Notes under the pieces: generated by a model
Database searches by the model: none
Seen by the model: only the letters and a program-made list of their open reading frames with translations
Told to the model about the DNA's origin: nothing
In this document: in pieces, positions 3,385-52,262 of the stretch
Position numbering within the stretch: the first letter of the stretch is position 1
Layout of the letters: every line of letters begins with the position of its first letter
Assembly (NCBI GenBank): GCA_964549685.1
Contig: CAZJVE010000008.1
Span: forward strand, 1 to 54,879
Direction: 5' to 3'
DNA from: an uncultured archaeon
GTDB taxonomy: Archaea; Altiarchaeota; Altiarchaeia; IMC4; QMZM01
Length of the DNA: 54,879 nt
Translations under genes and position numbers: made by a program

Positions 3385-4209
3385 ATGAAATTTTCCCTTG
3401 ACCCAAGGCAGCCAGCCTCTGCCAATGCAAACCGCTACTATGAGAAGTCAAAGAAGGCCAGGCAGAAGATATCCGGGGCCAAAAAGGCGCTTGAGGAAAC
3501 CCTGGCAAAGATAGAGAAGCTTGAAAAGGAAAAGGGCAAATTCATGCAGGAATTCCGGGAAAAGATTCCTGAGAAGAAAGAGATTAGAAAGAAGGAATGG
3601 TTCGAGAAGTTCCGCTGGTTCAGGAGCAGCGACGATTTCCTGGTTGTTGGTGGTAAAGATGCTACAACAAATGAAATTCTCATAAAGAAGCACACGGAGA
3701 AGAACGACCTTGTCTTTCACGCCGATGTTCAGGGCGCCCCATTCTTCGTAATCAAGAACCCTGATAACAAGGAAATTCCCGAATCCACCCTGGGGGAGGC
3801 GGCCCAGGCATCGGCCTCCTATTCCAAGGCCTGGGCCTCTGGCATGGGCTCCTGCGACGTCTACTACATAAAGCCGGACCAGGTCTCAAAAGAGGCCCCT
3901 GCAGGGCAGTATGTCGGCAAGGGAGCGTTCATGATATACGGCAAGAAGAATTTCCTGAGGGACACGCCTCTCGAGATTGGGATTGGACTCACCGCTGATG
4001 GGGGGGTAGTCGGCGGCCCCATCGATGCAATACCCGGAAATTCAAAAAATATCATAAAAATTTCCCCGGGTGATGTAAAATCGGGGCAGCTGGCGAAGGA
4101 GATTAAAGAATTATTAATCAAGAATTCAACAAAGGAGAAGCTGAAAAAGATAAAGCTCGAAGACATCCAGAGACTCATCCCTTCCGGGAAGGGACGAATA
4201 ATTAAGTAG
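3385..4209 (+). CDS. NFACT-R (DUF814) RNA-binding protein, C-terminal half of Rqc2/NEMF
   Basis: NANRYYEKSKK, WFEKFRWFRSSDDFLVVGGKDATTNE, FHADVQGAP, QVSKEAPAGQY.GKGAFMIYGKKN. Confidence 0.9.
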   Translation: MKFSLDPRQPASANANRYYEKSKKARQKISGAKKALEETLAKIEKLEKEKGKFMQEFREKIPEKKEIRKKEWFEKFRWFRSSDDFLVVGGKDATTNEILIKKHTEKNDLVFHADVQGAPFFVIKNPDNKEIPESTLGEAAQASASYSKAWASGMGSCDVYYIKPDQVSKEAPAGQYVGKGAFMIYGKKNFLRDTPLEIGIGLTADGGVVGGPIDAIPGNSKNIIKISPGDVKSGQLAKEIKELLIKNSTKEKLKKIKLEDIQRLIPSGKGRIIK

Positions 4210-8220: not shown

Positions 8221-9396
8221 ATGCTTAACGAGTTAACTAGAGTAGGGATTGAGGGCAGAGAGATTCTACTCCTTGGAACCGCCCACGTTTCAAAAGACAG
8301 CGTGGAGCTGGTCGAAAAAACCATAGAGAAAGAAAGCCCGGATTTCGTTGCGGTGGAGCTGTGCGAGAAGAGGCAGAAATCCCTTGCAAACGAGAAGAAG
8401 TGGAGTGACACAGAGATTAACAAGGTTGTGAGGGAGGGCAACGCCTACCTGTTTCTGATGCAGCTCCTTCTTGCAAACTTCCAGCGAAAGATTGGCGAGG
8501 ACCTCGGAATCAGGCCCGGAGCCGAGATGATAAAGGCCATGGAGATTGCACAGAAGAAGGGCATGGGGGTCGCTCTGGTCGACAGGGACATAAACGTAAC
8601 GCTGAAGAGGGCCTTTTCAAAGATGTCCCTGAAAGAGAAGTCCAGGATATTCATTGACATAATCTCCGGGGCCTTCGATGAGGATGAGGTTAACGAGGAG
8701 CTCCTCGCGAAGCTGAAGGAGAAGGACATAATAACGGAGATAATGGAGGACCTGGGCAAGGAAATTCCATCAGCAAAGGAGGTCCTTGTCGATGAGAGGG
8801 ACAGGTACATAGCGAACGGGATTCTGAATCTGGACGGTGAGAAGGTTCTTGCGGTCGTTGGTGCAGGTCACGTCGAGGGAATCAAGAAAATCCTGGAGTC
8901 CAACTCAAAATCAAAGAAGGAATTGAATAACGAAATAAATGAACTCGGGGAGATTCCCTCAAAGAAGAGCAGAATCAAACTCATCGCATACATCATCCCT
9001 GCAATATTTATTGCAATAATTGGATATGGATTCTACGCGCACGGATTTTCCATGACGCTCGACCTACTCTGGAAGTGGTTCCTGATTAACGGGACTCTAT
9101 CGGCTATTGGCGTTCTCCTTGCAATGGGGCACCCCCTATCTGCCTTGACTGCCTTCCTTGCGGCGCCCTTCACCTCTTTGAATCCAACCATAGCCGCGGG
9201 CTGGTTCGCTGGTATCACGGAAACCTGGCTCAGGAAGCCAAGAGTCAAGGACATCGAGGGCCTGCTGAGGCTGAACTCCATCTCCGACTACTGGAAAAAC
9301 AGGGTGACGAGAATCCTCCTCGTGATTGCATTTGCGAACATAGGCAGCTCAATAGGAACATTCATAGCACTGCCTTATCTGGCAGCGATGCTATAA
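8221..9396 (+). CDS. TraB/GumN (PrgY, pheromone shutdown) family protein
   Basis: LLGTAHVS, VAVELCEKR, PGAEM, LVDRDI..TLKR, LVDERD, VVGAGH, C-terminal TMs with APFTSLNP. Confidence 0.93.
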   Translation: MLNELTRVGIEGREILLLGTAHVSKDSVELVEKTIEKESPDFVAVELCEKRQKSLANEKKWSDTEINKVVREGNAYLFLMQLLLANFQRKIGEDLGIRPGAEMIKAMEIAQKKGMGVALVDRDINVTLKRAFSKMSLKEKSRIFIDIISGAFDEDEVNEELLAKLKEKDIITEIMEDLGKEIPSAKEVLVDERDRYIANGILNLDGEKVLAVVGAGHVEGIKKILESNSKSKKELNNEINELGEIPSKKSRIKLIAYIIPAIFIAIIGYGFYAHGFSMTLDLLWKWFLINGTLSAIGVLLAMGHPLSALTAFLAAPFTSLNPTIAAGWFAGITETWLRKPRVKDIEGLLRLNSISDYWKNRVTRILLVIAFANIGSSIGTFIALPYLAAML

Positions 9397-13194: not shown

Positions 13195-14175
13195 ATGCCC
13201 TACAAGATTCCTACGGCAATTAAATACGAGGAAAAGCTTTTCGGCCCATTAACGATTAAACAGTCGATATATGCCGGAATTGCAGTCTCCATAGTCCTCT
13301 ACATGATCTTTTTCTCCAGCTTTGATTTTGCCATAAGGATTATTGTTTCCATAGTCGTTATCCTCATGGCAGTGGGTTTCATAATGTTCGACCTTGAGAC
13401 ATACCTGGGGAATTATGTCTCATTCATGAGACAGGACCGGGAGGCATCATGGATCTCTCCAGCAGCGAGAAAGCTGATGGATATCAAATCTATAAAGGCG
13501 GACACGGAATTTCTCAAGAACGGAAACGCAATTGCCGTCGTAAGGGTCATCCCAATAAACTTTGGGGTTCTTGGAAAGGAGGACCGGGATTCGGTAATCT
13601 ACGGCTTCCTGCAGTTTCTGAACTCCCTGAACTTTTCGATACAGATAGTCATGAGGAGCGTAAATCTCGACTTGTCCGACTATCTGACAAACCTCAAGCG
13701 GAGAATTATCCAGAGGGACGACAAGATGGCTCTGGCATATTATGAGCACTTCTCCGAGTACATGTACGACTACATCAAGAAGAACAGAGTGAATGACCGG
13801 CTCTTCTATATAATCGTTCCTGCCAAGAAACACTGGGACGAGCGTGAGATGATACGGAACCTCGATTCAAGATGCAAAGCCATAATAGAAACCCTCTCAA
13901 GGTCGGGAATCGTGGCGGAGAGGCTGGGCAACAAAGAACTGCTCAATCTATACTCGTCCTATTTCACACAGAGCTTCTACATGGACGAGGAGTATCTATC
14001 GCCAATAACCATGTATAAGAAGATATGGAAGGGCAGCTCGGAAAGTGGGACCACCGCATCCCCCCCAGGTCAGGGAATAAAGCCAGAACCCAAGGCCGCC
14101 TCTTCAAGTCTGAAGGAATCTCAAATTAAGGAAAGAATTCAAAAATCTACACAAAAAAAGAACCCAACCTCGTAG
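13195..14175 (+). CDS. PrgI/VirB3-like membrane protein fused to a VirB4-associated (TrsD/TraC-like) soluble domain
   Basis: N-terminal YKIP..IKYEEKLFGPLTIKQ plus two TMs (PrgI-like), then PINF...E.D.VI..F..FLNSL.F.IQI and RLFYIIVP; directly upstream of virB4. Confidence 0.75.
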   Translation: MPYKIPTAIKYEEKLFGPLTIKQSIYAGIAVSIVLYMIFFSSFDFAIRIIVSIVVILMAVGFIMFDLETYLGNYVSFMRQDREASWISPAARKLMDIKSIKADTEFLKNGNAIAVVRVIPINFGVLGKEDRDSVIYGFLQFLNSLNFSIQIVMRSVNLDLSDYLTNLKRRIIQRDDKMALAYYEHFSEYMYDYIKKNRVNDRLFYIIVPAKKHWDEREMIRNLDSRCKAIIETLSRSGIVAERLGNKELLNLYSSYFTQSFYMDEEYLSPITMYKKIWKGSSESGTTASPPGQGIKPEPKAASSSLKESQIKERIQKSTQKKNPTS

Positions 14176-14184
14176 TGAATTAAA

Positions 14185-16479
14185 TTGGCACTTCCAATAA
14201 AACTACCTGATTTGCCCTTTCTGAAGGGGAAGAAGAAGAAAAAGCTTACGGGAACGTATGCGGACTATGAGAGCAAACTCATAGAGTATCTCACCACCCC
14301 CCCAACAATCGTAAAGCACCCCAACGAGATTCAGGCAGATAAATATCATCGCTGTATTGCAGCCATAAACTATCCCCGCCTGGTGGAGGCTGGCTGGCTC
14401 ACAAGGCTGATAGAGATGAATCTCGACTTTGACATCTCCATCCATATAGCCCCCTACTCTATTGAGGGCACCATAAAGATGCTTGAGACGGAGCTAAAGA
14501 AGCAGAAGACGGACCTGTTTGGCCTGAAAACGGAGGGTAAGATTATACCTCAGTCGTTAATTCAGAAGCACGAAGATACCAAGGCATTGCTCGAGGCAAT
14601 CCAGAGCGGGACTGAAAAGATGTTCTCCATGTCATTATATATCGATGCAAAGTCCTACGACCTAAAAGAACTGGACAAGATAACAGCAAAGATTCGGGGA
14701 CAGATGAATTCCATCATGGTTACTCCCAAGATAACCGCCTACCAGATGTACAAAGCGCTGAAATCGATACTTCCCGTAGGGCATGACGAACTGAAGATAA
14801 CGAGAGAGATAACCTCTTCTGCAGCGTCATCCTGCTTTCCGTTTGCGATTACATCCTTGGAGCCCCATGCAACAGGGATTCTGATTGGCTTTAACAAGAG
14901 GAATAGCATACCAATAATAATAGACCCCTTTGAGCTGAGCAATCCAAATATGCTGGTTCTTGGTACATCTGGAGGGGGTAAGAGCTACTGCATCAAATTA
15001 ATGCTCATGCGTGAATTCATGGAGAGTGTCGACATAAACATAATTGACCCGCAGGCGGAGTATACCGACCTTATCAAGACCTTCAACGGGAAGACAATAA
15101 AGATTGCCCCCGGCTCTAACGTTGTTATAAATCCAATGGACCTGATGGGCCAGACACTGGACGAGAAAAAGCTGTCCCTGCTTGCGTTCTTCAGGGTTCT
15201 GATGGGAGAACTGAAGGAGTCTCAGAGGGCAATTCTAGATGACGCGATTGATGCCGCCTACGAGGAAGTTGGAATTACCAAAGACCCAAGGACGTGGTCA
15301 AAGAGGCCACCAACACTGGAGGATTTATACAAGCAGGTTTTGCCACTCACAAGGTCTGAGAAGGATGTCATCTATAAACCCGCTCTTGAAATCGCGAATA
15401 GAATGAAGACCTACGTCCATGGCCCGTTGAGATTCCTCAACCAGCAGACCAAGATAGACCTGGACAACAGGATGATATCCTTTGACATAAGGGACATACC
15501 TGATGTGGGCAAAGGCACCCTCATGTTCCTGCTTCTGGAATACGTCTATAACATGATGAAGAAGTCCAAGAAGAGGAAGATGTTAGTCATTGATGAGGCT
15601 TGGATGGTTCTTTCAGCAGGGGAGGAGGGCGAATACATCCTGAGGCTTGTCAAAACGTGCAGAAAATTCAACCTGTCGCTAACCATGATAACGCAGGACG
15701 TGGAGGACGTCCTTACATCAAGAGCTGGAAGGGCAGTAATGGCTAACACGGCAACAAAGCTCCTTCTCAAGCAGGACACAACCGTGATTGATGAAATTAC
15801 CGAGAGATTCCATCTCAATGAGGCGGAGACAAGACAGCTGAGAATTGCAGGCACGGGAGACGCACTGCTCATAGCCGGAGCCCTCAGAGTACCCATAGGG
15901 ATTAAGGCATCCCCCGAGGAGCACAAACTCATAACCACAAAGCCCGACGAGCTGTTGGGCATGGTACACAAGACCAAGGGCCCGGAGGTAGAGAGGGAGA
16001 TGGCACCGGAACTGGACATCAAAAAGGTGGTGCAGGAGAAAACCGCTTTCACAAATGAGCAGATTAAAACTCTAATAGATATCGGCTTCAATGAGGTCAG
16101 AGTCAGCGACCTTGAAGGAGTGAGTAAGCTCTACATGATAAAGAACGAAACAGAAGATACTGATGAGCACTTTGTTGTCCAGAACCTTGTCAGGAACGAG
16201 ATTAAGAAATATACGGACAAGGCCCTGATACATCATACAAAAATGCCAGACCTAACATTCGAATCATCAGACGGCAAAATAGTCGCAGTTGAAATCGTGG
16301 CAGACATAAGCCTGAAGAGGAACATAGAGGCGATCGAGGAGAAGATAAACATCCTGCGAAAGTACGACGATTACTTCTTCGTAGTTGGAGACCCAAAGCT
16401 TGTGAAGTATGAGAGCTTCGGGGAGATTCTGACAAGAACCCAGGTGCCGGCAAAGATTAAATCCTATTTTGAGCAGTAG
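14185..16479 (+). CDS. virB4: VirB4-like (TraE/TrsE) secretion ATPase with extra C-terminal domain
   Basis: NPNMLVLGTSGGGKS (Walker A), IIDPQAEY, INPMD, MLVIDEAW (Walker B), RKFNLSLTMITQDVED. Confidence 0.88.
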   Translation: MALPIKLPDLPFLKGKKKKKLTGTYADYESKLIEYLTTPPTIVKHPNEIQADKYHRCIAAINYPRLVEAGWLTRLIEMNLDFDISIHIAPYSIEGTIKMLETELKKQKTDLFGLKTEGKIIPQSLIQKHEDTKALLEAIQSGTEKMFSMSLYIDAKSYDLKELDKITAKIRGQMNSIMVTPKITAYQMYKALKSILPVGHDELKITREITSSAASSCFPFAITSLEPHATGILIGFNKRNSIPIIIDPFELSNPNMLVLGTSGGGKSYCIKLMLMREFMESVDINIIDPQAEYTDLIKTFNGKTIKIAPGSNVVINPMDLMGQTLDEKKLSLLAFFRVLMGELKESQRAILDDAIDAAYEEVGITKDPRTWSKRPPTLEDLYKQVLPLTRSEKDVIYKPALEIANRMKTYVHGPLRFLNQQTKIDLDNRMISFDIRDIPDVGKGTLMFLLLEYVYNMMKKSKKRKMLVIDEAWMVLSAGEEGEYILRLVKTCRKFNLSLTMITQDVEDVLTSRAGRAVMANTATKLLLKQDTTVIDEITERFHLNEAETRQLRIAGTGDALLIAGALRVPIGIKASPEEHKLITTKPDELLGMVHKTKGPEVEREMAPELDIKKVVQEKTAFTNEQIKTLIDIGFNEVRVSDLEGVSKLYMIKNETEDTDEHFVVQNLVRNEIKKYTDKALIHHTKMPDLTFESSDGKIVAVEIVADISLKRNIEAIEEKINILRKYDDYFFVVGDPKLVKYESFGEILTRTQVPAKIKSYFEQ

Positions 16480-16542
16480 TTTATTTTTATAATCCAAATC
16501 TACTCACTGGACTCTATTTATCTATAAAATATGAATTAATTA

Positions 16543-17679
16543 TTGATGGCGCAAAGCGGGCTCAAAAAGACGAAGGTCAGGTATGAAGGAACAGAATACG
16601 TGGAGGAGCCGGTCACGACGGAGGCATCCACCAGATTCCCCACCATACTCCTGTGGCTGTTCTACCCCATCCTGCTCTATACTCTGTTGGCAGAAATAGT
16701 TGAACCGGGGTCAATATTCTACTATGCAACTGCTCTTTCTGCAATCCTTCTTGCGATACTCCCACCAACCATTCTAAACCTCACTGACCCGGAAAGGGCC
16801 GCCCTCTACAGGACCGGCAAATTCAAGAGGATTATAGGACCTGGGTGGTATTTCCCACTCATCACGTTCCTTGATTATGAGACGATAAGGCTGGTGGACA
16901 TAAGGATGGAACAAATCATTATAGAGCCGCAGCCTGTAGTGACCAAGGACAAGATATGGTTCCAGATAGCCCCAACCATCTTCCTATACGTCTCGAATGC
17001 GGAAAAGGCAATCAGGAACGTCCAGGACTACAAAAAGGCGGTCGTCGATTATGTCGTTGCTGCATTAACATCAATCTGCGGTGCCCAGACCTCGGACTAC
17101 ATAGTCACTCACATGGACAAGATAAGCAGGGACCTCGAGGAGGGGGTGGCAAAACTGGCCTCGGTCCCTGGAAGAGAGTGGGGCGTCGAGGTCCCAAGGG
17201 TTGAGATAAAATCCATTGAGTTCCCTGACAAGGTTCAGGACGCAATGCACGACAGAGTAGCAGCAGAACAGAAGAAACTCGCTGCCCATGAGCAGGCGGA
17301 GGCATCAAAGGTCGTTATAGATGCTGTGAGAGAAGCCGGCGCAAAGCTTACCGACCCTGCAATCACTTACCTTTACCTAGAGGCTCTTGACAAGATGGCA
17401 AGGGGCAGGGCAACAAAGATTGTCATGCCACTTGAAATATCCAAGATTGCCGAGAGGATTACCAAGACCACTGGAGGACTGACTCCTGACCAGAGCCAAC
17501 AGCTACATGGTGCCCTTGAAACATACGAAGACAAGCTAAAGAAACTTGAGAGCAGGGTAGAGGAAGAGGAAAAAGAGCTGGAGGAGGCGAAGGAACCAAA
17601 GGAGCCAACTCCAGCACAGGAGGATTATGCTAAAAAGATTGAGGAGATAAAGAAGAGAATAAAGGGGATGGAAAAATGA
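16543..17679 (+). CDS. SPFH/Band 7 (stomatin/QmcA-like) membrane protein
   Basis: Two N-terminal TMs, ERAALYRTGKF, VDIRMEQI.IEPQPVVTKD, WGVEVPRVEIKSI, YLEALDKMA..ATKIVMP; coiled-coil tail. Confidence 0.9.
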   Translation: MMAQSGLKKTKVRYEGTEYVEEPVTTEASTRFPTILLWLFYPILLYTLLAEIVEPGSIFYYATALSAILLAILPPTILNLTDPERAALYRTGKFKRIIGPGWYFPLITFLDYETIRLVDIRMEQIIIEPQPVVTKDKIWFQIAPTIFLYVSNAEKAIRNVQDYKKAVVDYVVAALTSICGAQTSDYIVTHMDKISRDLEEGVAKLASVPGREWGVEVPRVEIKSIEFPDKVQDAMHDRVAAEQKKLAAHEQAEASKVVIDAVREAGAKLTDPAITYLYLEALDKMARGRATKIVMPLEISKIAERITKTTGGLTPDQSQQLHGALETYEDKLKKLESRVEEEEKELEEAKEPKEPTPAQEDYAKKIEEIKKRIKGMEK

Positions 17680-17963
17680 CTAAAGAAGAAATAGACACAC
17701 ATAATATCTCTGTGGACGAGGAAGAAAACTCGGTGGCGATAAGGGTGAATCCAAGGCTCTACAAGACGCATTTCATAATGAATGCAGCCCATGACCTAAC
17801 AGAAACGGCAGGCTATCAGCATACCGACATAGTGATAGACGGCGACCCAGATACAACGATAGTAGTAAAATTCGTACCAAGGGAAAAGAAGGCAAGAAAG
17901 GAACTGCTTGACATAGCGTACCAGTTCAATTCCTTGCTGATTTCCCTGACTACCACAAGATAA
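17676..17963 (+). CDS. Small HxsD-like protein
   Basis: Pattern VNPRLY...IMNAA..L......IDGD....IVVKF.P......L..IAYQFNSLLI resembles His-Xaa-Ser system HxsD; overlaps both neighbours. Confidence 0.55.
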   Translation: MTKEEIDTHNISVDEEENSVAIRVNPRLYKTHFIMNAAHDLTETAGYQHTDIVIDGDPDTTIVVKFVPREKKARKELLDIAYQFNSLLISLTTTR

Positions 17964-19606
17964 TGGATGTCGATGACCTAAGCAAGAAGCTCTTTGGTGA
18001 CGAAGAACCTCAAAAACCCACGTTCGGTCCTGAAAAGATAAGGCTCATTGTTGAGAGAATTCTATTAAGGAACAATCTGACCCTTAAGTCCATCGATGCG
18101 ACTGAAGAGGGAGACTATCTCGCAAAGTCCACCGACGCCGGGGGGAGCAGGATATTCTCCTTCGTAAGGCTGGAATCAGCAGAAAAGGGCATAGAGCGGG
18201 GCCCCCTGGAGGATTTCTACAATGAGGCGCTGGAGAGGAATTCCGACCGTCACATATTCATAACCGATTCGGTCTTCACGGAAGAGGCCCAGGCCTTTGC
18301 AGCCGAGAAGTACATCATCCTTGTCGATAGCGAAAAGATAGACTCTATCCTCGCAGAAAAAAAGGAGCTTGAGGTAGAAAAGGCATTCATCTCAGCCAAG
18401 AGCGACAGAGAGGCCCTTCAGCATTTCAAAACCCGGAGAAAGAAAAAGACATTACGTGTCATTGGAACGGAGGAAAAGATTGAGGAGATTGACAGGAGAT
18501 ACTCGCCTGTTGCATGCTATATGATTTCCTATGCGGGGGAGGAGGTTGTCGAAAAAACGAGAGTCTATGTGGACCTTGCTTATGGGGAGATTTATAGGGT
18601 TGTGGAGGGAAGGGTCGAGAAGAATGACATAATAAGGAGGATAATGAGCCTTCCCGAGGGTGCCAGGGAACTGCTAATCGAGCTGCTTCAGCATGAGAAG
18701 ATAGATGAGGAGCACATATCCGGAAAGGACCTCGAACTCCTGAAGAAGAAAAAGTTCGTCAAGATAAAGAGAAAGGAGAAGTCAAGCGGCATCCTCATTC
18801 TCATCATAGATGAGATACTCGATGCAGTGAGGCTTGTCTCACGCGGAGCATCAGAGTTTGGCGGCAAGAGCTCTCAGGCCGAGACGATATACCGTGACCC
18901 GCTGAAAACAAAAACCCAGAGGTTCGTCAGCCCCGACGTCATCGAGAAATTCGACCACACCTACGACCTTGAGTTCTATCTTCTCACAGGCAAACCAAAG
19001 GAAGAATTCGACCGTGACGATATTAAATACGACAAGGACGAGGTCGCGAGAATTCTCAACGCCCTGACGGAGGAGGAAGAGGAAATAGAGTACAGGTACC
19101 AGATATATACCCCCTATTACAAATGCAGATACCTGGGCAGGGACCGATACAGGCATCTTAGACACACCCCGCTCAAGTTCAAGAAGAAGAAGGCCCGCGT
19201 GTTCGGTGGCACATCCGGAGCAGTTATTACGTTTGCAAGTGGCCTGCCACTGATTATAGCTACAATTCTGCTGGTTGGGCTCATATCCACTTTTGCCACT
19301 AAGGAATCCCTATCCTGGGTTTTTACAGAGAACAGATCGGTGGATTCCCTAATAGCAGCGATTTTCGGAACCATACTACTCGGAGACCCGATAGCATCCT
19401 ATATCCTCGGAAGCGAGTTTTTGAATCTGGGACTCAGCCTCATAGCAGTGACATCCTTCCTTGTTGCATGGGTTTCTGTTGGCGTGGTACATCTTCCCAT
19501 AGAGTCAAGATTCCTTGGCACGAGATTCACATTGCTTAGAGCTGCCCTATCATTTATCCTTGCAATAGCGGTAGCTTTCGTTACAGTATCAATCATGGGG
19601 GTATAA
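17963..19606 (+). CDS. Fusion of an Mrr-like restriction-endonuclease domain, a soluble linker region and a DUF318-type permease half
   Basis: N-terminal IFITDSVFTEEAQAFA...IILVDSEKI (Mrr_cat-like); C-terminal ILLGDPIASYILGSEFL.LG.S..AV.SFLVAWVSVG.V.LP.E..FLG.RF.LLR (DUF318-like). Confidence 0.7.
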   Translation: MDVDDLSKKLFGDEEPQKPTFGPEKIRLIVERILLRNNLTLKSIDATEEGDYLAKSTDAGGSRIFSFVRLESAEKGIERGPLEDFYNEALERNSDRHIFITDSVFTEEAQAFAAEKYIILVDSEKIDSILAEKKELEVEKAFISAKSDREALQHFKTRRKKKTLRVIGTEEKIEEIDRRYSPVACYMISYAGEEVVEKTRVYVDLAYGEIYRVVEGRVEKNDIIRRIMSLPEGARELLIELLQHEKIDEEHISGKDLELLKKKKFVKIKRKEKSSGILILIIDEILDAVRLVSRGASEFGGKSSQAETIYRDPLKTKTQRFVSPDVIEKFDHTYDLEFYLLTGKPKEEFDRDDIKYDKDEVARILNALTEEEEEIEYRYQIYTPYYKCRYLGRDRYRHLRHTPLKFKKKKARVFGGTSGAVITFASGLPLIIATILLVGLISTFATKESLSWVFTENRSVDSLIAAIFGTILLGDPIASYILGSEFLNLGLSLIAVTSFLVAWVSVGVVHLPIESRFLGTRFTLLRAALSFILAIAVAFVTVSIMGV

Positions 19607-19608
19607 AA

Positions 19609-20121
19609 ATGGGATGGGGTAGATTTCAGTGGTATTTCCTGGCTTTGATTGCATTCATTTATTTAATCTTGATGGTCATTACTCCGGAGAAGGGGTCTCA
19701 GTCCCTGGAAGCCTCCAAGGAGGTTTTAATAACGATAGCCCCCTTCATAATTCTCGTTTTGGCATTGATGGTGGCAATTGATTATTTCCTCCCACCAGAG
19801 AAATTCATAAAGAACTTTGGGGCGGACTCAGGAGTCAAGGGCTTCATTATTGCAGTATTTCTGGGTATGATTATCGAGGGGGAGACTATTCTGTTATACC
19901 CGATGCTGAGGACACTTATGAAAGAAGATGTAAGGCCCGGCATAATAGCGACCTTCCTGTACGCAAAAGCGATTCATGTACCTGCACTCCCCATCATGGT
20001 GCTGTATTTTGGGGTTGAATACACGCTTATTGTAGCAGCAACAATGATTGTCGCTTCACTCGTGATAGGAATTCTCATTGAGCTGCCTCTGAGATTCTCC
20101 CGTTCATTCTACCGGCAATAG
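19609..20121 (+). CDS. DUF318-type permease, partner subunit
   Basis: FGADSGVKG, G..ILLYPMLRTL, IATFLYAKAIHVPALPIMVLYFG: the typical second half of paired DUF318 permeases. Confidence 0.75.
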   Translation: MGWGRFQWYFLALIAFIYLILMVITPEKGSQSLEASKEVLITIAPFIILVLALMVAIDYFLPPEKFIKNFGADSGVKGFIIAVFLGMIIEGETILLYPMLRTLMKEDVRPGIIATFLYAKAIHVPALPIMVLYFGVEYTLIVAATMIVASLVIGILIELPLRFSRSFYRQ

Positions 20122-33796: not shown

Positions 33797-36673
33797 ATGA
33801 AATCTATGGACATAAAACGGATTGGTACATTAGCTGCCAGTACCGTTATGTTGGGAGCAGCCCTGACAGGTCCAGTGAGTGCAGGAATGGACTCCACTGG
33901 ATTGGACGGGAGCTTCTTCTATGACGCCGACTATAGCCCAGTTGCGCAGATAGTCGTCGGAGAAAAAGTAGGGAACGCCCTAGACTTTGTAGCGGCAGGA
34001 AACATTGCAGCTACAGTGGGTAACCTCGCTTACATGGAGTCGACCGAGGATGTAACCGGGGGAACGGCAGAGGGAGAAGTTATTATAAGCAGCTCTGCTA
34101 TAGGCGCTACCGGAGACTATGTACAGGACACACAGCTGTTGGAAACCCTTGAGGAGTTCTATGACAAGGACGATGGTTTCAACTTTGACAGCGGTGAAGT
34201 AACCTACGAGAGGGGAGACTTCACACAGTACAGCCTGGCCTGTGAGCAGCAGACTAGGACCGAGGCAGCCGTTTTGATGGAAGGCGAGTACAGCAACGTA
34301 CACTGCCTGTTCTGTCAGACACTCTGTCTGGAAGCTCTGGAGAACCCAAGCCACGAGATGAAAGAGAAAATTACTGTGGACTACGACAACATAGCCTACT
34401 ATGAGGACGGCCTCAACGACGATGACTCAGAGGACCTGAGGATGGCTATAACTGAGAAGGACTCCATAGTCTACACGATAGAAGCTGGCTTTATACCCAT
34501 GAAGAAGATTACCGAGGATGTCGGTGGCGGAGCGGAAGACTACATAGACTTCGAGTACAGGGGGAAGATGATTCTCTTTGGAGAGGAGTACTATGTTAGA
34601 GAGATTGACGGCTCTACCAAGATATACCTGTCTCAGGGCAAGGTTCTAGACGGCATAAGCAGCGAGGGATACACTGCTGAGTACAACGGGTACAAGTTTA
34701 AGATTGACCACCTGATATACTCTGCAGAGTACGAGGTTGCTGGAATTCTCCTGGACGTGGAGAAGCCAGACGGCACAGTAGTGCAGACACAGATATCCAA
34801 GATGGCAAACGGCCAGATTGATGACATGGAGATATCTGGAGTATACGCCGAGGAGGCAGATGCGCTTGCATCAGCATCCATAATCGTATACGACACAACC
34901 TCTGATGTACTGCTTGAAGACGGCGAGGACATCGAGCTTGGTGGAACAGTATGGGACGACTGGAGCGTCGAGTTTACCGTAGTTAGCGGTGATGGAGTCG
35001 ACGGTGCATGTGATGCCATGGACGGCGCTGACCCAGCTGGACCAGACTGTGACATATCCGAGTATGATGAGATGGATGAGGACCAGGATGATGCCTTGCT
35101 ACAGCAGATAACCGTGACATACGACCACAAGCTGGACGGAGCAGAGGCTCTTGAAGTTGATGAGTCTTTGGAGTTCCCAGGCGGCAGGTTCAAGCTGACC
35201 TTTAAGGGCTTCCTGACAAACGACTTCAGAGAGAGCAGCTGTGTCGGAGACGGCGAAGGCAACATCGTTGTTGAGAGAGGAGACGAGGACTACCAGATAG
35301 TTGTTTCCTTTACTGGCGATGACAACAACCGCTACGACGATGTCAGGCTGGACGAAGGACCGTTCGGAAAGGGGAATATGTTTGTTATAGACGGCACAGT
35401 ATACACCTACGACAAGTACAAAGCGATTGACAACACAGACGGAGACGACTCTGACGACCAGGTGAAGGTTACTCTGGACCCAGTGATAAGAGGAAACAGG
35501 CAGAAGATAACACTGGACAGGCTCTGTGACCCAGAAGACGAAGAGGGAACGGCAGCAGGCTGTGACTTCACAACAACGTTCTGCGACTGTGAAGACATCC
35601 CCGAAGAGATAACCGTAAGGACCCTTGCACTGACAGACGCAATGGACGACGACGACGACGAGGACATGGAGAACGACGATGAGATCGAGATAGGGACAGA
35701 AGACCTATTCTACAAGGAGAATGCAATAAACGGACTTCTGATGCTATACGATGGCTCAAAGTTGATAACCTTTGCAGACAACCTTACCGACCTAGCCATA
35801 ACGGTGAACGCGAACATGGTAGGGACTCTGGACGACTTCGACGTGGATGAGCACAAGCTGGACCTGTGGGTTGTAGAGGAAGGAGACAAGTACACGGACA
35901 TAAACTCTACGGGCACCCTGGCAGGAGCAGACGTAAACGCTGACGGAGACGACGACGACACCCTGATATACATACAGGATGACAACGGCGAGAGAGTGGT
36001 CATCGACCTCTGCGACAGAGACTACGATGAGGACGATACCTGGGACTACAACAACGCTGTTGGAATGTACGAGCAGGACTGCAACTGTACAGTCAATTGT
36101 GCAATCGACACCTGTGTGGTTGACGATGTAATCGTTCTTGAGGAAGACGCAGACACCATGTTGATAGCCCCTGACGGTGGAAACACCTACAGTCTAGACT
36201 GGGGTACGGACAACAGGATTGACTCGGTGGATATATGTCACCCAAGGGACGATGTCGACGCTACCGTGTTCCTAGGCACAGAGGAAGAAGAGACCCTGGC
36301 GGAGTATACCATAACCAAGGACGATGTGGGCACAGAGAAAGAAGCTGCCTGCTGCAGGTTTAAGGTAGAGGACTTCGCTGTGACAGGAACCGCCGGTGGA
36401 TCTGTGAGCACAGTTGTCGTGAACCCAGTAGGCAACCTTGTTGTATCTGAGTCTGCAGCTGACGGGACAAAGAACCTCGTCCTTGTTGGAGGCCCAGCTG
36501 TCAACGCAATGACGGAGGCAGCAGGAGTAACCTCAGCTGAGATAGATGCAGCAACAGACAAGTACGTTGTTAAGAAGGTAGACAACACACTTGTTGTTGC
36601 AGGATGGGAAGCAGACGACACCGTTGCAGGTGCGAACGCCTTAATCAGCTGGTTAAAGGCAAACGCCCACTAA
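33797..36673 (+). CDS. S-layer protein (Methanococcales/Thermococcales-type N- and C-terminal domains), possible hamus subunit homolog
   Basis: N-terminal MDIKRIGTLAASTVMLGA...QIVVGEK...D..AA.NIAA; C-terminal NLVLVGGPAVNAMT...LVVAG.EADDT..GA; very acidic; strong codon bias. Confidence 0.88.
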   Translation: MKSMDIKRIGTLAASTVMLGAALTGPVSAGMDSTGLDGSFFYDADYSPVAQIVVGEKVGNALDFVAAGNIAATVGNLAYMESTEDVTGGTAEGEVIISSSAIGATGDYVQDTQLLETLEEFYDKDDGFNFDSGEVTYERGDFTQYSLACEQQTRTEAAVLMEGEYSNVHCLFCQTLCLEALENPSHEMKEKITVDYDNIAYYEDGLNDDDSEDLRMAITEKDSIVYTIEAGFIPMKKITEDVGGGAEDYIDFEYRGKMILFGEEYYVREIDGSTKIYLSQGKVLDGISSEGYTAEYNGYKFKIDHLIYSAEYEVAGILLDVEKPDGTVVQTQISKMANGQIDDMEISGVYAEEADALASASIIVYDTTSDVLLEDGEDIELGGTVWDDWSVEFTVVSGDGVDGACDAMDGADPAGPDCDISEYDEMDEDQDDALLQQITVTYDHKLDGAEALEVDESLEFPGGRFKLTFKGFLTNDFRESSCVGDGEGNIVVERGDEDYQIVVSFTGDDNNRYDDVRLDEGPFGKGNMFVIDGTVYTYDKYKAIDNTDGDDSDDQVKVTLDPVIRGNRQKITLDRLCDPEDEEGTAAGCDFTTTFCDCEDIPEEITVRTLALTDAMDDDDDEDMENDDEIEIGTEDLFYKENAINGLLMLYDGSKLITFADNLTDLAITVNANMVGTLDDFDVDEHKLDLWVVEEGDKYTDINSTGTLAGADVNADGDDDDTLIYIQDDNGERVVIDLCDRDYDEDDTWDYNNAVGMYEQDCNCTVNCAIDTCVVDDVIVLEEDADTMLIAPDGGNTYSLDWGTDNRIDSVDICHPRDDVDATVFLGTEEEETLAEYTITKDDVGTEKEAACCRFKVEDFAVTGTAGGSVSTVVVNPVGNLVVSESAADGTKNLVLVGGPAVNAMTEAAGVTSAEIDAATDKYVVKKVDNTLVVAGWEADDTVAGANALISWLKANAH

Positions 36674-48472: not shown

Positions 48473-50122
48473 ATGGACAAATTTCCCAGGTATGCATCAA
48501 TTTCCATTATCCTGCTCATTGCCCTTGCACTCCGCCTCCCGAACCTGGAGAGAGTCCCCTACTGGTACTGGGACGAGGGGGTCAACATGAATATTGCATG
48601 GAACCTGGTCAACGGCATGGCCCTCTGGTTCTCGCTGAAGTTCCCTTTCATGCCCCACCCGCCGCTGTTTTTCATGGTGGGGGGGATTCTACTCCAGATG
48701 TTTGGAAATGAACTTATTGTTATGAGAGCGTTATCTGTTTTTTATGGAATTCTCACAACGGCCACCATCTATCTCATCGCCAGGGAATTCTTCAGCGAAA
48801 GAATCTCCCTGCTCTCAGCCTTTCTCTTTGCCATATACCCTGTGGCAATCTACTGGAACCGGATGGCGTTCGCAAACAACCAGCTTACCCTTCTAATCCT
48901 CCTGGCAATGTATTCTTTCTGGAAATACGTCCACGAGTGCCGGTTCACTAACAAGAAGGCCGATAGATGGCTCTACATCGGCTCCCTGTTCACGGGGCTG
49001 GCTCTGATTACAGAGCTCTTTGGCTTCTTCCTGCTCGTTTCAATCTTCATAATCATCAGAGAGGGAAGGGTAAAGCCCATCGTCCTATCCCTGATTCTGC
49101 CGGCAATATTCTTCGCAACAATGTTCGCCTTTATGCCTGCAGAATTCATCCATGACACGGCATTTACCCTAAAGAGATTTGGAATAACGTTCAATTCGCT
49201 TCTAATCCTTTCATTGACCTCAATCCTGATTTATATCCTGAGAGAGAAAGTAATCGGAATTCTAATCCGTCTCAGGAACTTCTACACCAACCTTGCCTAT
49301 GACTCCGTGCTTCTTCCCGGGGAGTCGAAACTACCCCAGGACGAAAGGCGGGAGACGGCAAAGAAAAGGCTCAGGAGCAATGCGATCCTCTTTCTGGTTC
49401 TCCTCAACCTGCTTGCAGGAATAACTCTGATATTTCCGTTCAGCGATGTCATACTCTTCAAAGGAGTCGATTATTTCTGGCTTGGTATCTTCGGCCTCCT
49501 CATGGCCAAGAATGACGCGAGGAAATTCCTCATTGCATTCTTCCTGCCCCTCTTCCTCGTCACGTTCATCCTTACCGGGAGGACCGACCACCTGGTGATA
49601 CCACTGCTGCCCTTTTTCTGCCTTGGCCTGGTCGTCTTCTTGAGGGAAATCTATAGCTACATGGGCTCCTTCTCCATACAGAGCATAGTAATCCTAATCC
49701 TTCTCTCCTACCCGCTTGCATTCGTTCTCTACCACGACGCATCCAGCTTCATCCTCGGAAACGGCCTCATCCATGAGGACATAGACGGCAGAATCGAGGC
49801 TGCAGGATTCATAAACTCCCGGACAAGCCCGGAGGACGTAGTCATTACGGACAGCCACCTGGGGCGCTTCATCAACTCAAGGACATCCGTTCTCATCCAG
49901 TCTATTGCATTTCAGGGCAGGCAAATAACATACATGGCTCCCGATTACGGCAGGGAGAGGTTTGAATTCGATCCCTCGCACGGAAACGCAAGGTTCATAG
50001 TAATAACGCCCGAAGTGGCTGAATGGCTATCAGAAAATGACGAGGAGATGTTCATGGACATCCAGAAGTGGCCGACTCACAGTGTTGGGGGATACATAAT
50101 ATACGAGAACCCTAGAGAATAA
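48473..50122 (+). CDS. GT-C fold (ArnT/PMT-like) membrane glycosyltransferase
   Basis: LALRL...WYWDEG, PHPPLFF, R.LSV..G..T...IY..ARE; many TMs. Confidence 0.85.
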   Translation: MDKFPRYASISIILLIALALRLPNLERVPYWYWDEGVNMNIAWNLVNGMALWFSLKFPFMPHPPLFFMVGGILLQMFGNELIVMRALSVFYGILTTATIYLIAREFFSERISLLSAFLFAIYPVAIYWNRMAFANNQLTLLILLAMYSFWKYVHECRFTNKKADRWLYIGSLFTGLALITELFGFFLLVSIFIIIREGRVKPIVLSLILPAIFFATMFAFMPAEFIHDTAFTLKRFGITFNSLLILSLTSILIYILREKVIGILIRLRNFYTNLAYDSVLLPGESKLPQDERRETAKKRLRSNAILFLVLLNLLAGITLIFPFSDVILFKGVDYFWLGIFGLLMAKNDARKFLIAFFLPLFLVTFILTGRTDHLVIPLLPFFCLGLVVFLREIYSYMGSFSIQSIVILILLSYPLAFVLYHDASSFILGNGLIHEDIDGRIEAAGFINSRTSPEDVVITDSHLGRFINSRTSVLIQSIAFQGRQITYMAPDYGRERFEFDPSHGNARFIVITPEVAEWLSENDEEMFMDIQKWPTHSVGGYIIYENPRE

Positions 50123-50228
50123 CATTCGACGTAAACCACATCCAAAAAAGCAGGCCGAATACCAGGCCCAGGAAAATCATGACATCCCTTCTCGTTATAT
50201 CATCCCTTAGTTGAATTTTGGATGGCAT
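50112..50228 (-). CDS. Unannotated 38-aa single-TM micro-protein
   Basis: ATG at 50228 reads MPSKIQLRDDITRRDVMIFLGLVFGLLFWMWFTSNVIL*; TATA-like sequences upstream on the minus strand; fills otherwise empty space. Confidence 0.5.
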   Translation of the reverse strand: MPSKIQLRDDITRRDVMIFLGLVFGLLFWMWFTSNVIL

Positions 50229-50342
50229 TTTGAAAACGATACGTTTATATATTACTTCCACCTTATAAATTTATAATGGCTTTCATAGCCATATTTAAAA
50301 AATCCATCGGAATATATAATATCAAAAATTGAGGTGAAAAAC

Positions 50343-50744
50343 ATGAACATTGATTATATTATGGAAGACAGAAGGCCCAAAGCGTTGATTCTGTTAGGAG
50401 TTATCCTGCTAGTTTCTCTCGTTTCTGCGCAGAGCACTGCCGTAGAGACTGCAATCAGTTGTATGGCATGCAGGATTATGCAGCTTGTATTTATGATAAT
50501 TGGTATGGTGGTGACGCTGGTGATAATATTTGCAGGGCTCAAATGGGTTGGCTCTGGCGAAGACCCCGATGCTAGAAACCAGGCGAAGCAGATGATAATT
50601 CATGCCATAATTGGGCTGGTGATTATAATCATAGCCGCCTACGCAGTAAGCTGGCTGACAAGCAGTCTTATGGAGTTCACGATTGCTGACCCGGCTGAGG
50701 CGGTTAGTGGTTGTGGTACCTGGTGTGGTTACACCGGTGTATAA
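50343..50744 (+). CDS. VirB2/TrbC-like pilin
   Basis: SD gaggtg before ATG 50343; signal peptide; hairpin TMs with IIFAGLKWVGSGEDPDARNQAKQMIIHAIIGLVII. Confidence 0.8.
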   Translation: MNIDYIMEDRRPKALILLGVILLVSLVSAQSTAVETAISCMACRIMQLVFMIIGMVVTLVIIFAGLKWVGSGEDPDARNQAKQMIIHAIIGLVIIIIAAYAVSWLTSSLMEFTIADPAEAVSGCGTWCGYTGV

Positions 50745-50769
50745 AACCATCTAATTCTTTCTTTTTCTT

Positions 50770-52257
50770 TTATTTTTCTTTATCCCTGCAGTCGTAGACA
50801 TATATGTCCCTTATTTTTACGTCCAGCCTGCAGGAGCTGTTTGCATAATCGCTTATTACAGGGATATTCAGCCTTCTTGAGACTATGACGTAATTACCAT
50901 CCACAAGGGAATTCACCACCTCTTCATCCTGATAGTCACTGAACCTCGGGTCTATTGAATTCATATCTACTGCGCCCTTTGCCATCTCCCTACCAGAAAG
51001 GAAGGCAACCGCCGGGGCAAGCACCGGGGAGCCCGTAATCTTCCCCTTCTCCGCAAGGTTCATATACTCTGCAGTATCCATGAGTGGACCATGCCACAGC
51101 ACATAGGTGGACATGAAAGTCCCGATATGTATGAACACCACAATAACAATAACGGACTTCAGGAAGAGCTGCTTCCATGAGTCCTTCAGCCAGTCTGCTG
51201 TTCTTCCTGCCAATAAAGCCAAAGCGGGAGCAGCATTTATCAGATAGATATAGGAACTTATGTAGAACGGATACCTGATGATGAATATTGCAGCCAGTGA
51301 GAGAAGGGCCCATGCTGACAGCAGCACGTCCGGTCCCCTCTTCTCTTTGAGCGCCAGATAAAGGCCCACAAGGCCCAAGGGCAGGAGAAGCAGGTACCTG
51401 GGAATTCCCTCCCTGAGCAGGAAGAGCGCCTTCAGAAAGACCGGGCTGTCTGCCTTCACTGCATGGAAGCCGAGTATCTGCTCAAGCATTGGCGTGCTAT
51501 TGTAATGGATTAATGCCGGAGCGACAGCAAGGAGCAGGCCAGCCAGGAGAAGAGCATAGATTCTCCAGTTCTTCATCCTCTGAATTAAAAGATAAACCAG
51601 AATACTCACCAACGGAATTATGGCAAATAGACGATACAACATCGCAATTCCCAGGCATAGTCCTGACAGAAGAATTCCCCAGTAATTCTTTCTCTCTATT
51701 CCATCAAACAAAAACAGGATAGCCAGGAGGCTGAAGAATATCATCTCCGAGAACATCATAGCGCTCCTCGTGAATTGTACAACTCCAACGCTTATGGAGA
51801 AGACAAAGGCACTCAACAGTGCTGCCCTGAAGCCGTAGAATCTCCTCGCTATTAGATAGATTAATGGAATGCATCCTATGCTCAGGACTACGGGGATTAT
51901 CTTGGCCTGCCAGACCCCGACCCCGAGCAGGCTGAAAATCCACGAAGTAACCAATGGATAGGCTGGGGGATGTGCCAGGAAGAAGTCCACATAAAGCCCC
52001 AACCCCCCATAGACCTGCTTTGCTGCCATCACATAGACTGCCTCGTCGGATACCATCAGCATATTCACGGTCAAGAGGCGAAGCAGGGCACCCAGCAGAA
52101 CGATAAAGAGCACATACCTCTTCGCCCCGTCCTCTTTCAGACCAGAGAATAGCGGCTTTGACCCCCTGCCGTTCATATACGAGTAGATTAGATACAGCAC
52201 AATAATCAAAAGCGGAACCCCGACCAGGCACGGCGCGATATACTGGCTGAATTCCAT
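50770..52257 (-). CDS. GT-C fold (ArnT/PMT-like) membrane glycosyltransferase
   Basis: SDEAVY..A.....G..LY.DFF.AHPP, IYLIARR.YG..AAL; many TMs; probable start MEFSQ. Confidence 0.85.
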   Translation of the reverse strand: MEFSQYIAPCLVGVPLLIIVLYLIYSYMNGRGSKPLFSGLKEDGAKRYVLFIVLLGALLRLLTVNMLMVSDEAVYVMAAKQVYGGLGLYVDFFLAHPPAYPLVTSWIFSLLGVGVWQAKIIPVVLSIGCIPLIYLIARRFYGFRAALLSAFVFSISVGVVQFTRSAMMFSEMIFFSLLAILFLFDGIERKNYWGILLSGLCLGIAMLYRLFAIIPLVSILVYLLIQRMKNWRIYALLLAGLLLAVAPALIHYNSTPMLEQILGFHAVKADSPVFLKALFLLREGIPRYLLLLPLGLVGLYLALKEKRGPDVLLSAWALLSLAAIFIIRYPFYISSYIYLINAAPALALLAGRTADWLKDSWKQLFLKSVIVIVVFIHIGTFMSTYVLWHGPLMDTAEYMNLAEKGKITGSPVLAPAVAFLSGREMAKGAVDMNSIDPRFSDYQDEEVVNSLVDGNYVIVSRRLNIPVISDYANSSCRLDVKIRDIYVYDCRDKEK

Positions 52258-52262
52258 ATCTC

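Follow-up and report, generated by a model that had tools for sequence, protein, structure and literature searches.

An SPFH, HxsD-like, and Mrr-like gene trio conserved in Altiarchaeota as a candidate accessory membrane module of a chromosomal, Ced/Ted-like VirB2/3/4 machine

To our knowledge, Ced and Ted are the only machines derived from type IV secretion systems (T4SS) that have been studied in Archaea. They import DNA in Sulfolobales and Thermoproteales and, according to the available part of the published account (PMC9905601), combine a VirB4-like protein (CedB or TedB) with a VirB2-like (CedA1 or TedC) and a VirB6-like one (CedA or TedA); the same part of this source describes archaeal conjugation-type pili as stoichiometric pilin–lipid complexes. 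The locus considered here lies in a stretch of 54,879 nucleotides (the window) from an uncultured member of Altiarchaeota (contig CAZJVE010000008.1 of assembly GCA_964549685.1, positions 1 to 54,879 of the forward strand). Directly after a virB4 gene, four co-oriented open reading frames (ORFs; positions 16543 to 20121) encode, in this order, a divergent SPFH protein (gene 1), a 95-residue HxsD-like protein termed small95 (gene 2), a protein with an Mrr-like domain termed MrrX (gene 3), which in this genus is fused to one half of a permease, and the other half of that permease (gene 4).

SPFH proteins oligomerize into ring-like scaffolds, and partnerships of SPFH proteins are exemplified by HflK/C with FtsH and stomatin with NfeD. 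HxsD is a component of the HXS system (HxsABCD), where, as far as the available sections of the report go (PMC13128918), it binds the radical-SAM enzyme HxsC and is required for the processing of HxsA. Against this background, the unit conserved among Altiarchaeota is the trio of SPFH, small95, and MrrX genes, not the set of four. As judged from gene content and neighborhoods, there is about an even chance that this trio serves a chromosomal VirB2/3/4 machine of Ced/Ted-like kind as an accessory membrane module specific to the lineage, with the transporter of this genus representing a local swap of the membrane anchor.

Conservation was surveyed by whole-genome searches and neighborhood maps in 61 genomes of the class. 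All of the genomes compared are incomplete metagenome bins, and the source genome itself (1.17 Mb in 27 contigs) is 85% complete, which sets the scope of the negative results within it. Of the 61 genomes, 23 contain a match to small95 at E ≤ 0.001, and 21, spread over nine genera, contain an orthologue at E < 1e-30. The divergent SPFH gene stands immediately upstream of small95 in 19 of these 21 genomes, the two exceptions being a contig end and genus g5, where small95 directly follows VirB4; MrrX stands immediately downstream in 15. Since the gene order recurs in relatives, it is more than a chance arrangement. The sequence-only reading of this locus had put forward a four-gene system; conservation across genomes extends to the SPFH/small95/MrrX core and stops short of the four-gene unit, the transporter being present in one genus only.

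The surroundings of the trio point to T4SS genes. In 16 of the 21 genomes (six of nine genera), a VirB4 or T4SS pilin gene is found within 3 kb of small95; for VirB4 itself, this applies to 12 genomes (five genera). In the genus of the window (g1), the order is PrgI–VirB4–SPFH–small95–MrrX, with lonB, not a pilin gene, beside PrgI. The same series is preceded by a pilin gene in g7 (seen in three of five genomes), while in g8 it meets small multi-unit pilin-repeat ORFs that converge on MrrX; in g4, the trio is accompanied by pilin and VirB4 genes convergent on MrrX. All four genomes of g6 have PrgI–VirB4–MrrX at one locus and, at another, SPFH–small95 followed by a gene for a 204-aa membrane protein and a pilin gene, with SPFH–small95 about 0.6–1.3 kb upstream of the latter. 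In g5, PMT_2–pilin–PrgI–VirB4–small95 stand together, and MrrX lies elsewhere beside fumA. The breakpoints differ between genera, and so does the trio member that has stayed next to T4SS genes. In g2, g3, and g15 (five genomes), the trio lies by aroC/fumA or other genes, with neither VirB4 nor pilin alongside. As a separate observation, the genes located 3′ of SPFH–small95 in g6 (L061:9218-10528, L063:8276-9851, L062, and L064; 4/4) encode a conserved protein of 204–215 aa with two transmembrane (TM) segments and a pilin with a Cys-rich N-terminal extension.

The membrane part of MrrX is what distinguishes the window from other genera. Residues 413–547 (19199..19606, + strand) form four hydrophobic helices that correspond to the N-half of a DUF318/ArsP_1-like permease, and gene 4 (19609..20121, + strand; 170 aa, about five hydrophobic helices) would provide the C-half of the same split protein. 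Residues 428–541 of gene 3 match positions 17–131 of PF03773 with 16.9 bits, and residues 34–158 of gene 4 match positions 170–293 with 23.4 bits, so the two genes cover complementary halves of the ArsP_1 profile, both below its cut-off of 32.3 bits; a fusion protein 74% identical to gene 3 carries a precomputed PF03773 match. The "partner permease" of the sequence-only reading is most likely the second half of a split permease. The permease half is limited to the lineage of this genus, where it is found in six proteins (window, G001, L073, and P0001–P0003), and gene 4 lies next to MrrX in this genus only. A metagenome scan with the window MrrX detected one locus, L073, and a scan with P0004, a homologue without a membrane domain, found no relative. 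In g7, the two permease halves are a free-standing pair of adjacent genes elsewhere in the genome, the first-half genes (139 aa) being 39–48% identical to the N-half in the window and the second ones 30–32% identical to gene 4.

Outside this genus, the membrane domain of MrrX is a PAP2 lipid phosphatase domain, detected with Pfam in 8/8 membrane-bearing relatives scanned and present in 17/17 of those aligned. The motifs K-x6-R-x2-P and P-S-x-H are kept in all 17 and S-R-x5-H-x3-D in 16, the remaining protein having A-R. No PAP2 row (PF01569) was obtained for the window protein; the only PAP2 gene of its genome (contig C17) is an unrelated paralogue, and no MrrX-type PAP2 copy occurs elsewhere in that genome. 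Because relatives carry PAP2, the fusion occurs in this genus only, and the pair is free-standing in g7, the window form is, on these alignments, the product of an anchor swap, in which the leading gene of a permease pair took the place of PAP2 in MrrX, bringing its companion gene with it. By the same comparison, the four-gene form is a genus-level derivative of the conserved trio, and the 17 PAP2-bearing relatives speak against regarding the four genes as the system. The permease half has diverged much faster than the rest of MrrX (47–49% against 71–91% identity).

It was initially proposed that a membrane microdomain links a cytoplasmic nucleic-acid sensor to a transporter; in an SPFH microdomain of this kind, a bound ligand would gate the flux of ions or solutes. 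In this genus, a sensor-like part is indeed fused to a half permease with the other half translationally coupled, and the fusion is intact in all six proteins of the lineage. However, the permease is missing from the homologous protein in every other genus, where the 17 aligned relatives have PAP2 and some others lack a membrane domain; the same permease pair is free-standing elsewhere, and both halves score below the ArsP_1 cut-off and evolve fast. Since the transporter link is peculiar to one genus, coupling of a sensor to a transporter is not a general mechanism, and as an explanation of the operon it is highly improbable.

The soluble part of MrrX was modeled for residues 1–412 (pLDDT 80.5). 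Its first domain (residues 20–135; 18020..18367, + strand) has an Mrr-type PD-(D/E)xK fold: Mrr_cat (PF04471) is matched with 30.9 bits at a cut-off of 21, and the closest structural matches are AF1548 (Z 12.4, rmsd 3.0, 107 aligned residues), AspBHI (Z 11.3), and MspJI (Z 10.6). The active site appears degenerate. With the catalytic positions assigned from the strands of the predicted model and not from superposition, the (D/E)xK site on strand 3 reads (L/V/F)-x-R or W-T-K in 25/25 aligned members, the acid being absent throughout, and the acid of strand 2 is not invariant among the same 25. Because this acid is missing in every member and relatives of MrrX match PF22722, an "inactive REase" family, the nuclease is taken as degenerate, and cleavage appears unlikely on this model-based assignment. 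For the nucleic-acid-sensing module suggested earlier, this means that sensing is still possible while cleavage is not expected. A search of PDB sequences with the MrrX profile returned chance rows only.

The second part of MrrX (residues 137–405; 18371..19177, + strand) is a central module that defines the family and corresponds to no Pfam family. In the model, a beta-rich part is followed by a winged helix (residues 229–273, with MarR and ScpB matches at Z about 7.4), an amphipathic helix of low confidence (274–315), and an alpha/beta domain (317–405). The same module (about residues 140–400) makes up the N-terminus of CDC48-like proteins of 612–1213 aa with one to three AAA domains (P0088–P0131), one of which ends in DUF835, and it also exists as stand-alone proteins of 260–280 aa. 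Since it both heads AAA+ ATPases and stands alone, the central module probably recognizes a macromolecular partner, which may be a protein rather than DNA. Forms of MrrX without the membrane domain exist as well (the cluster representatives P0004, 421 aa, and P0013, 424 aa). Tandem pairs of soluble MrrX-type proteins (about 371 plus 458–478 aa) were observed in family f7 (L026:5897-11162, L028, L029, and L030), and at one of these four loci genes for an AsnC-type regulator, PMT_2, and a T4SS pilin come next.

The Mrr/type IV restriction fold also suggests a membrane-based defense against viruses or mobile DNA, with the Mrr-like domain as a sensor of incoming DNA, small95 and the SPFH protein as adaptor and scaffold, and the variable membrane part as an effector. 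Rapid divergence of the membrane half would agree with such a role, as would a type IIG restriction-modification gene observed three genes away from the trio in a relative (L019); moreover, HxsD is part of HXS, which was shown to block phage DNA entry in the available part of the corresponding report (PMC13128918). On the other hand, the missing catalytic acid in 25/25 aligned members, the absence of the radical-SAM partners of HXS and of an HxsA-type effector, and the single-copy, syntenic, and vertical occurrence of the trio among housekeeping genes in nine genera, unlike defense islands, are difficult to reconcile with it. The trio was found neither on viral contigs (searched with the small95 profile) nor in a plasmid collection (searched with residues 1–412 of MrrX). 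PADLOC-DB 2.0 has no family matching genes 2 and 4, and its rows for gene 1 (LmuB, E 0.02) and gene 3 (mREase_IV, E 0.0011) are at chance level, which agrees with the earlier expectation that the operon is not cataloged in defense databases. Taken as a whole, a defensive function is decidedly unlikely.

Gene 2 (17676..17963, + strand) encodes small95, a soluble protein shorter than HxsD in which no TM segment was found. Its AlphaFold2 model (pLDDT 85) is a beta-beta-alpha-beta-beta-alpha sandwich. No direct match to the HxsD model TIGR03976 was obtained, either at E ≤ 0.1 or, on the whole genome, at E ≤ 10; among four further small95-type proteins, two reach 15.3–16.9 bits (cut-off 50) and two give no row. 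A profile built from 13 orthologues, in turn, recovers weaker-scoring paralogues encoded by sister genomes. These four Altiarchaeota proteins reach 45–47 bits on TIGR03976, and their genes are clustered with those for another HxsD-like protein and for a radical-SAM maturase (HxsB), each of which exceeds its cut-off. Alignment of small95 with these four HxsD proteins by hhalign gave a probability of 98.3% (E 2.4e-14, 76 columns), and in a search of 5.8 billion sequences the 13-orthologue profile reaches HxsD-annotated PF27806 proteins (E 7e-10 to 3e-9). A feature search (Atlas) also ranks HxsD clusters first (0.85), which is a lead only. By these criteria of profile similarity, small95 is an HxsD homologue detectable only by profile comparison, and the initial HxsD-like call has been upheld. 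Structure searches gave generic two-layer alpha/beta matches only (Foldseek best E 0.026), a wide structure search (VIA) reached at best Z 7.7, within its stated background, and a Flavobacteriia match of the small95 scan (26% identity, E 4e-4) was taken as chance.

Small95 retains the conserved L-Y of the HxsD "LYW" motif, with Y29 invariant, and ends in F-N-S-L-L-I-S-L, thus stopping before the D and R of LLNDYxLRE, the two residues of HxsD mutated in the HXS study according to its available part (PMC13128918). Of the genes that usually accompany HxsD, HxsB-level radical SAM is absent from the genome, the best row reaching 47.8 bits at a cut-off of 370. Hxs-type clusters were observed in sister genomes (L070:7161-10357 in G004, L069:1811-5060 in G006, also L068 and L071), in the order Peptidase_A24-like gene, HxsD (45–47 bits, below the cut-off), NF038315 HxsD-like gene (above its cut-off), and HxsB (395–422 bits, above the cut-off). 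L070 also has four T4SS pilin genes within 6 kb.

Gene 1 (16543-17679, + strand; 378 aa as listed from a TTG codon) matches SPFH (PF01145) over residues 84–255 with 94.1 bits at a cut-off of 23.6. The likelier start is the ATG at 16546 (16546..17679) because M2 and A3 are invariant across the 16 orthologues aligned. An N-terminal hydrophobic hairpin (segments 32–50 and 55–73 in a Kyte–Doolittle scan) precedes the SPFH domain, which is followed by a charged coiled-coil tail; the hairpin is the predicted site of membrane attachment, and the topology is deduced from this layout. Gene 1 is one of three SPFH genes in the genome, the other two being tandem canonical paralogues that score 153–156 bits. 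Its best NCBIfam rows are HflK/HflC, all far below the cut-offs (TIGR01933: 47.4 bits, 159.4 required). As in the initial description of the operon, the usual companions of these protein types are missing: no NfeD was found in the genome at E ≤ 0.1, and no metal or arsenic regulator occurs among the neighbors scanned. The protease gene lonB, a divergent neighbor here and a nearby gene in g6, was considered as a source of an SPFH client and dropped, as lonB is not nearby in g7 and g8.

Another explanation is that the trio is an autonomous membrane-homeostasis module, in which an SPFH ring, like HflK/C with FtsH or stomatin with NfeD, encloses and regulates a membrane enzyme (PAP2 or, here, the permease), small95 serves as an adaptor, and the Mrr-like and winged-helix part is a regulatory or oligomerization domain, the proximity to virB4 reflecting inherited gene order. 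The HflK/HflC rows, although far below the cut-offs, are in line with this proposal, and the lack of NfeD means that another partner is needed; besides, g3 has the trio without VirB4, in g2 and g15 the two lie apart, the commonest downstream neighbors of the trio are the housekeeping genes aroC and fumA, and the PAP2 catalytic motifs are kept in 17 relatives but for a single S-to-A change. However, such a module leaves unexplained why trio parts are kept by VirB4 or pilin genes despite the rearrangements in g4, g5, g6, and g8, and it offers no role for the nuclease fold and the winged helix. Nor should a unit centered on an enzyme tolerate the exchange of PAP2 for half a permease or the loss of the membrane part (P0004 and P0013). 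An autonomous module is possible but rather doubtful.

The machine that the trio may serve is represented in the window by two genes upstream of the operon and one far downstream. The ORF at 13195..14175 (+ strand) combines a VirB3-like (PrgI) membrane part with the N-terminal domain of a split VirB4: PrgI (PF12666) scores 30.9 bits at a cut-off of 27, two hydrophobic segments lie within residues 21–67, and positions 4–278 of NF045975 fall into this ORF while positions 279–893 fall into the next one. The latter (14185..16479, + strand) encodes a VirB4-type ATPase of 764 aa, with P-loop_TraG at 93.8 bits and NF045971 at 316.9 bits (cut-off 325); its best rows, the CD1110 type (316.9 bits) and the Mycoplasma ICE type, place it in the monoderm/FATA type. 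VirB4 orthologues (61–97% identity) occur in 45 of the 61 genomes; all families of the order but one have them, and the class's two remaining families lack them. Because of this presence across the order, VirB4 behaves as a core, vertically inherited gene. Its conserved C-terminal extension of about 170 aa (window 15950-16479, residues about 590–764) has no family match, and a feature search (Atlas) with it was uninformative (0.79); the extension was also noticed as separate ORFs of 183–238 aa in family f7, and by eye only it shows a P-D ... E-x-x pattern recalling a nuclease fold.

The VirB2-like T4SS pilin gene of the window (50334..50744, + strand) is located between two PMT_2 glycosyltransferase genes and matches PF18895 with 42.5 bits (cut-off 26.6) and PF04956 with 35.8 bits. 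Further pilin genes of the genome lie on contig C1 beside a cis-prenyltransferase gene and, as two adjacent genes, on contig C11. In the latter region (C11:30307-36316; L078, L033–L040), the two genes lie on the minus strand and encode chains of 1168 and 788 aa built from 11 and 7 tandem T4SS_pilin units. Together these amount to 18 concatenated pilins, the repeat measuring about 95 aa and including two hydrophobic helices. Pilin genes were recurrently observed by genes of polyprenyl-linked glycosylation (window 48473-52266; L048, L066; L079:5952-7672), as PMT_2–pilin–PMT_2 in the window and as PMT_2–pilin–PrgI–VirB4 in g5 and g7. No TrbL/VirB6 (PF04610) was detected in the genome at E ≤ 0.1, and of the coupling-protein families, PF12696 gave nothing at E ≤ 0.01 and PF02534 only 18.3 bits, below its cut-off; these are divergent families, and their absence is to be read with that and with the 85% completeness in mind. 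By profile matches, the genome thus holds a predicted minimal T4SS set consisting of VirB4, VirB3, and VirB2 pilin.

The operon is embedded in a housekeeping stretch of a small archaeal genome. Six genes on the + strand, PrgI/VirB3-like, VirB4, and the four ORFs, are divergent from lonB and radA and convergent at the 3′ end with aroC; radA, lonB, aroC, and fumA are the neighbors of the locus, and the same flanks recur in several genera. The setting of the operon is vertical and chromosomal. As read directly from the sequence, genes 1 and 2 (17676-17963, 95 aa) overlap by 4 bp (ATGA), genes 2 and 3 (17963-19606, 547 aa) by 1 bp (TAATG), and genes 3 and 4 (19609-20121) are separated by 2 bp (TAA-aa-ATG), exactly as first described; Shine–Dalgarno-like G-rich runs precede the ORFs. 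The 63-bp AT-rich spacer between virB4 and gene 1 (16480..16542, + strand) contains the TATA-like runs TTTATTTTTATAA and TATAAAAT and may harbor an internal promoter of the four-gene unit. The domain content assigned initially likewise holds, with SPFH and Mrr above their cut-offs and the permease as complementary halves below it. Contigs from two further sequencing runs (X5 record 6, X7 record 22) span the fusion point near 19198, which is therefore not an assembly artifact; the same gene 3 fusion is found in five further proteins of 547–548 aa.

If the trio is an accessory module of the VirB2/3/4 machine, the following mechanism can be suggested. The module would work at the cytoplasmic face of the membrane, and a cytoplasmic location of its large soluble parts fits because they lack signal peptides and TM segments and come after N-terminal basic stretches. 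The SPFH protein would form a hairpin-anchored, ring-like scaffold; small95 would be a small adaptor that presents or holds a segment of a partner, as HxsD does for HxsC, the partner here being presumed; and MrrX, anchored through a polytopic domain that can be exchanged, would expose its dead nuclease fold, winged helix, and recognition module. The latter might bind a substrate, either DNA or protein, and deliver it to the VirB3/VirB4 complex or gate its passage there. Such a receptor role is that of the coupling protein in bacterial systems, for which no gene was found here. The service of the module to VirB2/3/4 may thus be the handling of substrates or pilins or that of a receptor replacing the coupling protein. 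In most genera, the PAP2 anchor may process a polyprenyl or archaeal lipid phosphate for the assembly of the pilus or glycan. Because archaeal conjugation-type pili are pilin–lipid complexes, as mentioned above, a lipid phosphatase in the cluster is suggestive, and so are the PMT_2 and cis-prenyltransferase neighbors. The two permease halves of this genus would make one pseudo-symmetric membrane unit that acts mainly as an anchor.

A more specific version of this mechanism is that the trio is the substrate receptor or gate of a domesticated conjugation-type machine for DNA exchange, in which it replaces VirD4. Altiarchaeota are reported to have two membranes; the membrane-anchored dead nuclease with its winged helix would capture DNA at the inner face of the membrane, the HxsD-like adaptor and SPFH ring would couple MrrX to VirB3/VirB4, and the PAP2 anchor would tailor the lipid that co-assembles with the VirB2-like pilins. 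In this full form, the proposal is unlikely.

Several observations weigh against an accessory role for VirB2/3/4. Each of the two, trio and VirB4, can occur without the other: VirB4 is present in 20 of the 21 genomes of family f7, which has no trio and whose one match to the small95 profile (G031) is HxsD proper, and genus g3 (G004, 92% complete, and G013, 73% complete) has the trio and only P-loop-level matches to a VirB4 model. The five genomes of g2, g3, and g15 that have neither VirB4 nor pilin beside the trio belong here as well. Moreover, the counts overstate independent support because the genomes are kin, and adjacency in related genera may be a single inherited arrangement. This genus does without the MrrX-type PAP2, and the exchange of an apparently active PAP2 for a permease half is hard to square with an essential enzymatic anchor; fast divergence of the permease fits a mere anchor but equally fits diversifying selection. 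Finally, DNA binding by the nuclease-fold and winged-helix parts is putative, and the AAA+ unfoldase-like proteins with the central module point to recognition of protein, not DNA. Among the functions offered by the sequence-only reading, DNA uptake with VirB4 is nevertheless the one most favored by the neighborhood evidence, with the reservation that VirB4 and the trio can occur apart.

Some other genes of the window attract attention on their own. A TraB/PrgY/GumN gene (8221-9396; 129.7 bits) is located 4 kb upstream of the VirB3/VirB4 genes. A protein of 958 aa (33797-36673) matches the S-layer-like outer domain PF05124; the hami of Altiarchaeum, which are grappling-hook appendages, resemble S-layer proteins. 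A short NFACT gene (3385-4209) comprises the C-terminal end of NFACT_N and NFACT-R, and a relative (L018:5658-6821) has a separate gene for a 387-aa NFACT_N, so that NFACT may be a split gene.

A literature search yielded no paper linking Altiarchaeota to VirB4 and none linking them to T4SS, conjugation, or pili, which one review mentions separately; judged by listings and abstracts, no SPFH gene in a virB4 operon has been described. If the accessory-module reading is true, archaeal T4SS-derived machines would gain three unrecognized accessory parts, an SPFH scaffold, an HxsD-like adaptor, and a membrane-anchored pseudo-nuclease, and such a machine would be part of the core chromosomal traits retained by Altiarchaeota. 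The HxsD fold would gain a second biological context outside the radical-SAM setting, and a new recognition module would be common to MrrX and CDC48-like AAA+ ATPases, while the apparently clean natural swap of PAP2 for a split permease marks a dispensable part of MrrX. Should this reading fail, the trio would still be a membrane system conserved throughout a family, in a phylum about which little is known.

Compared with the SPFH partner operons, HflK/C–FtsH and stomatin–NfeD, the module has in common an anchored SPFH protein that is translationally coupled to a small partner and lies beside a polytopic membrane protein that the SPFH protein might enclose. It differs in that the partner is HxsD-like instead of an OB-fold protein, NfeD is missing, and the SPFH protein is divergent, with HflK/C rows far below cut-off. 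With the HXS system, as described in the available part of PMC13128918, it shares the homology of small95 to HxsD, the retained L-Y, and the invariant Y29; however, small95 ends just after F-N-x-L-L, without the D and R of LLNDYxLRE, and neither HxsB/HxsC nor HxsA is present here, whereas true Hxs clusters are found elsewhere in sister genomes. Mrr-type restriction enzymes and the "inactive REase" domains of STAND NTPases (PF04471, PF22722) resemble the N-terminal 135 residues of MrrX in fold and family. Unlike in the restriction enzymes, the catalytic acid is missing, the domain shares one polypeptide with a winged helix, a novel module, and a membrane part, and a DNA-recognition domain like those of Mrr, MspJI, or AspBHI is lacking.

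A precedent for a T4SS in the company of SPFH proteins comes from Agrobacterium tumefaciens, where, according to the available part of the report, T4SS and T6SS are present in detergent-resistant membranes (PMC8656257), so that the T4SS is co-resident with SPFH proteins as is proposed here; in that bacterium, however, the SPFH genes are unlinked to T4SS genes and the association is stated, in a section heading, to be independent of the SPFH proteins, whereas here all of them form one cluster. Ced and Ted, within the limits of the part of PMC9905601 used, are similar in being chromosomal domesticated T4SS remnants that combine a VirB4-type ATPase with VirB2-like pilins and have no relaxase or coupling protein. 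In contrast to CedB, the VirB4 described here is of the monoderm/FATA type, split, and joined to VirB3, and it scores 49.9 bits on the CedB equivalog model NF041017, far from its cut-off of 700; a VirB6-like gene was not found, and SPFH, HxsD-like, and Mrr-like/PAP2 parts do not figure among the components of Ced and Ted in the same part of that source. Overall, the closest known systems (Ced/Ted, SPFH partner operons, and HXS) share at most two features with the module, and the locus as a whole would represent an archaeal T4SS-derived machine with new accessory parts.

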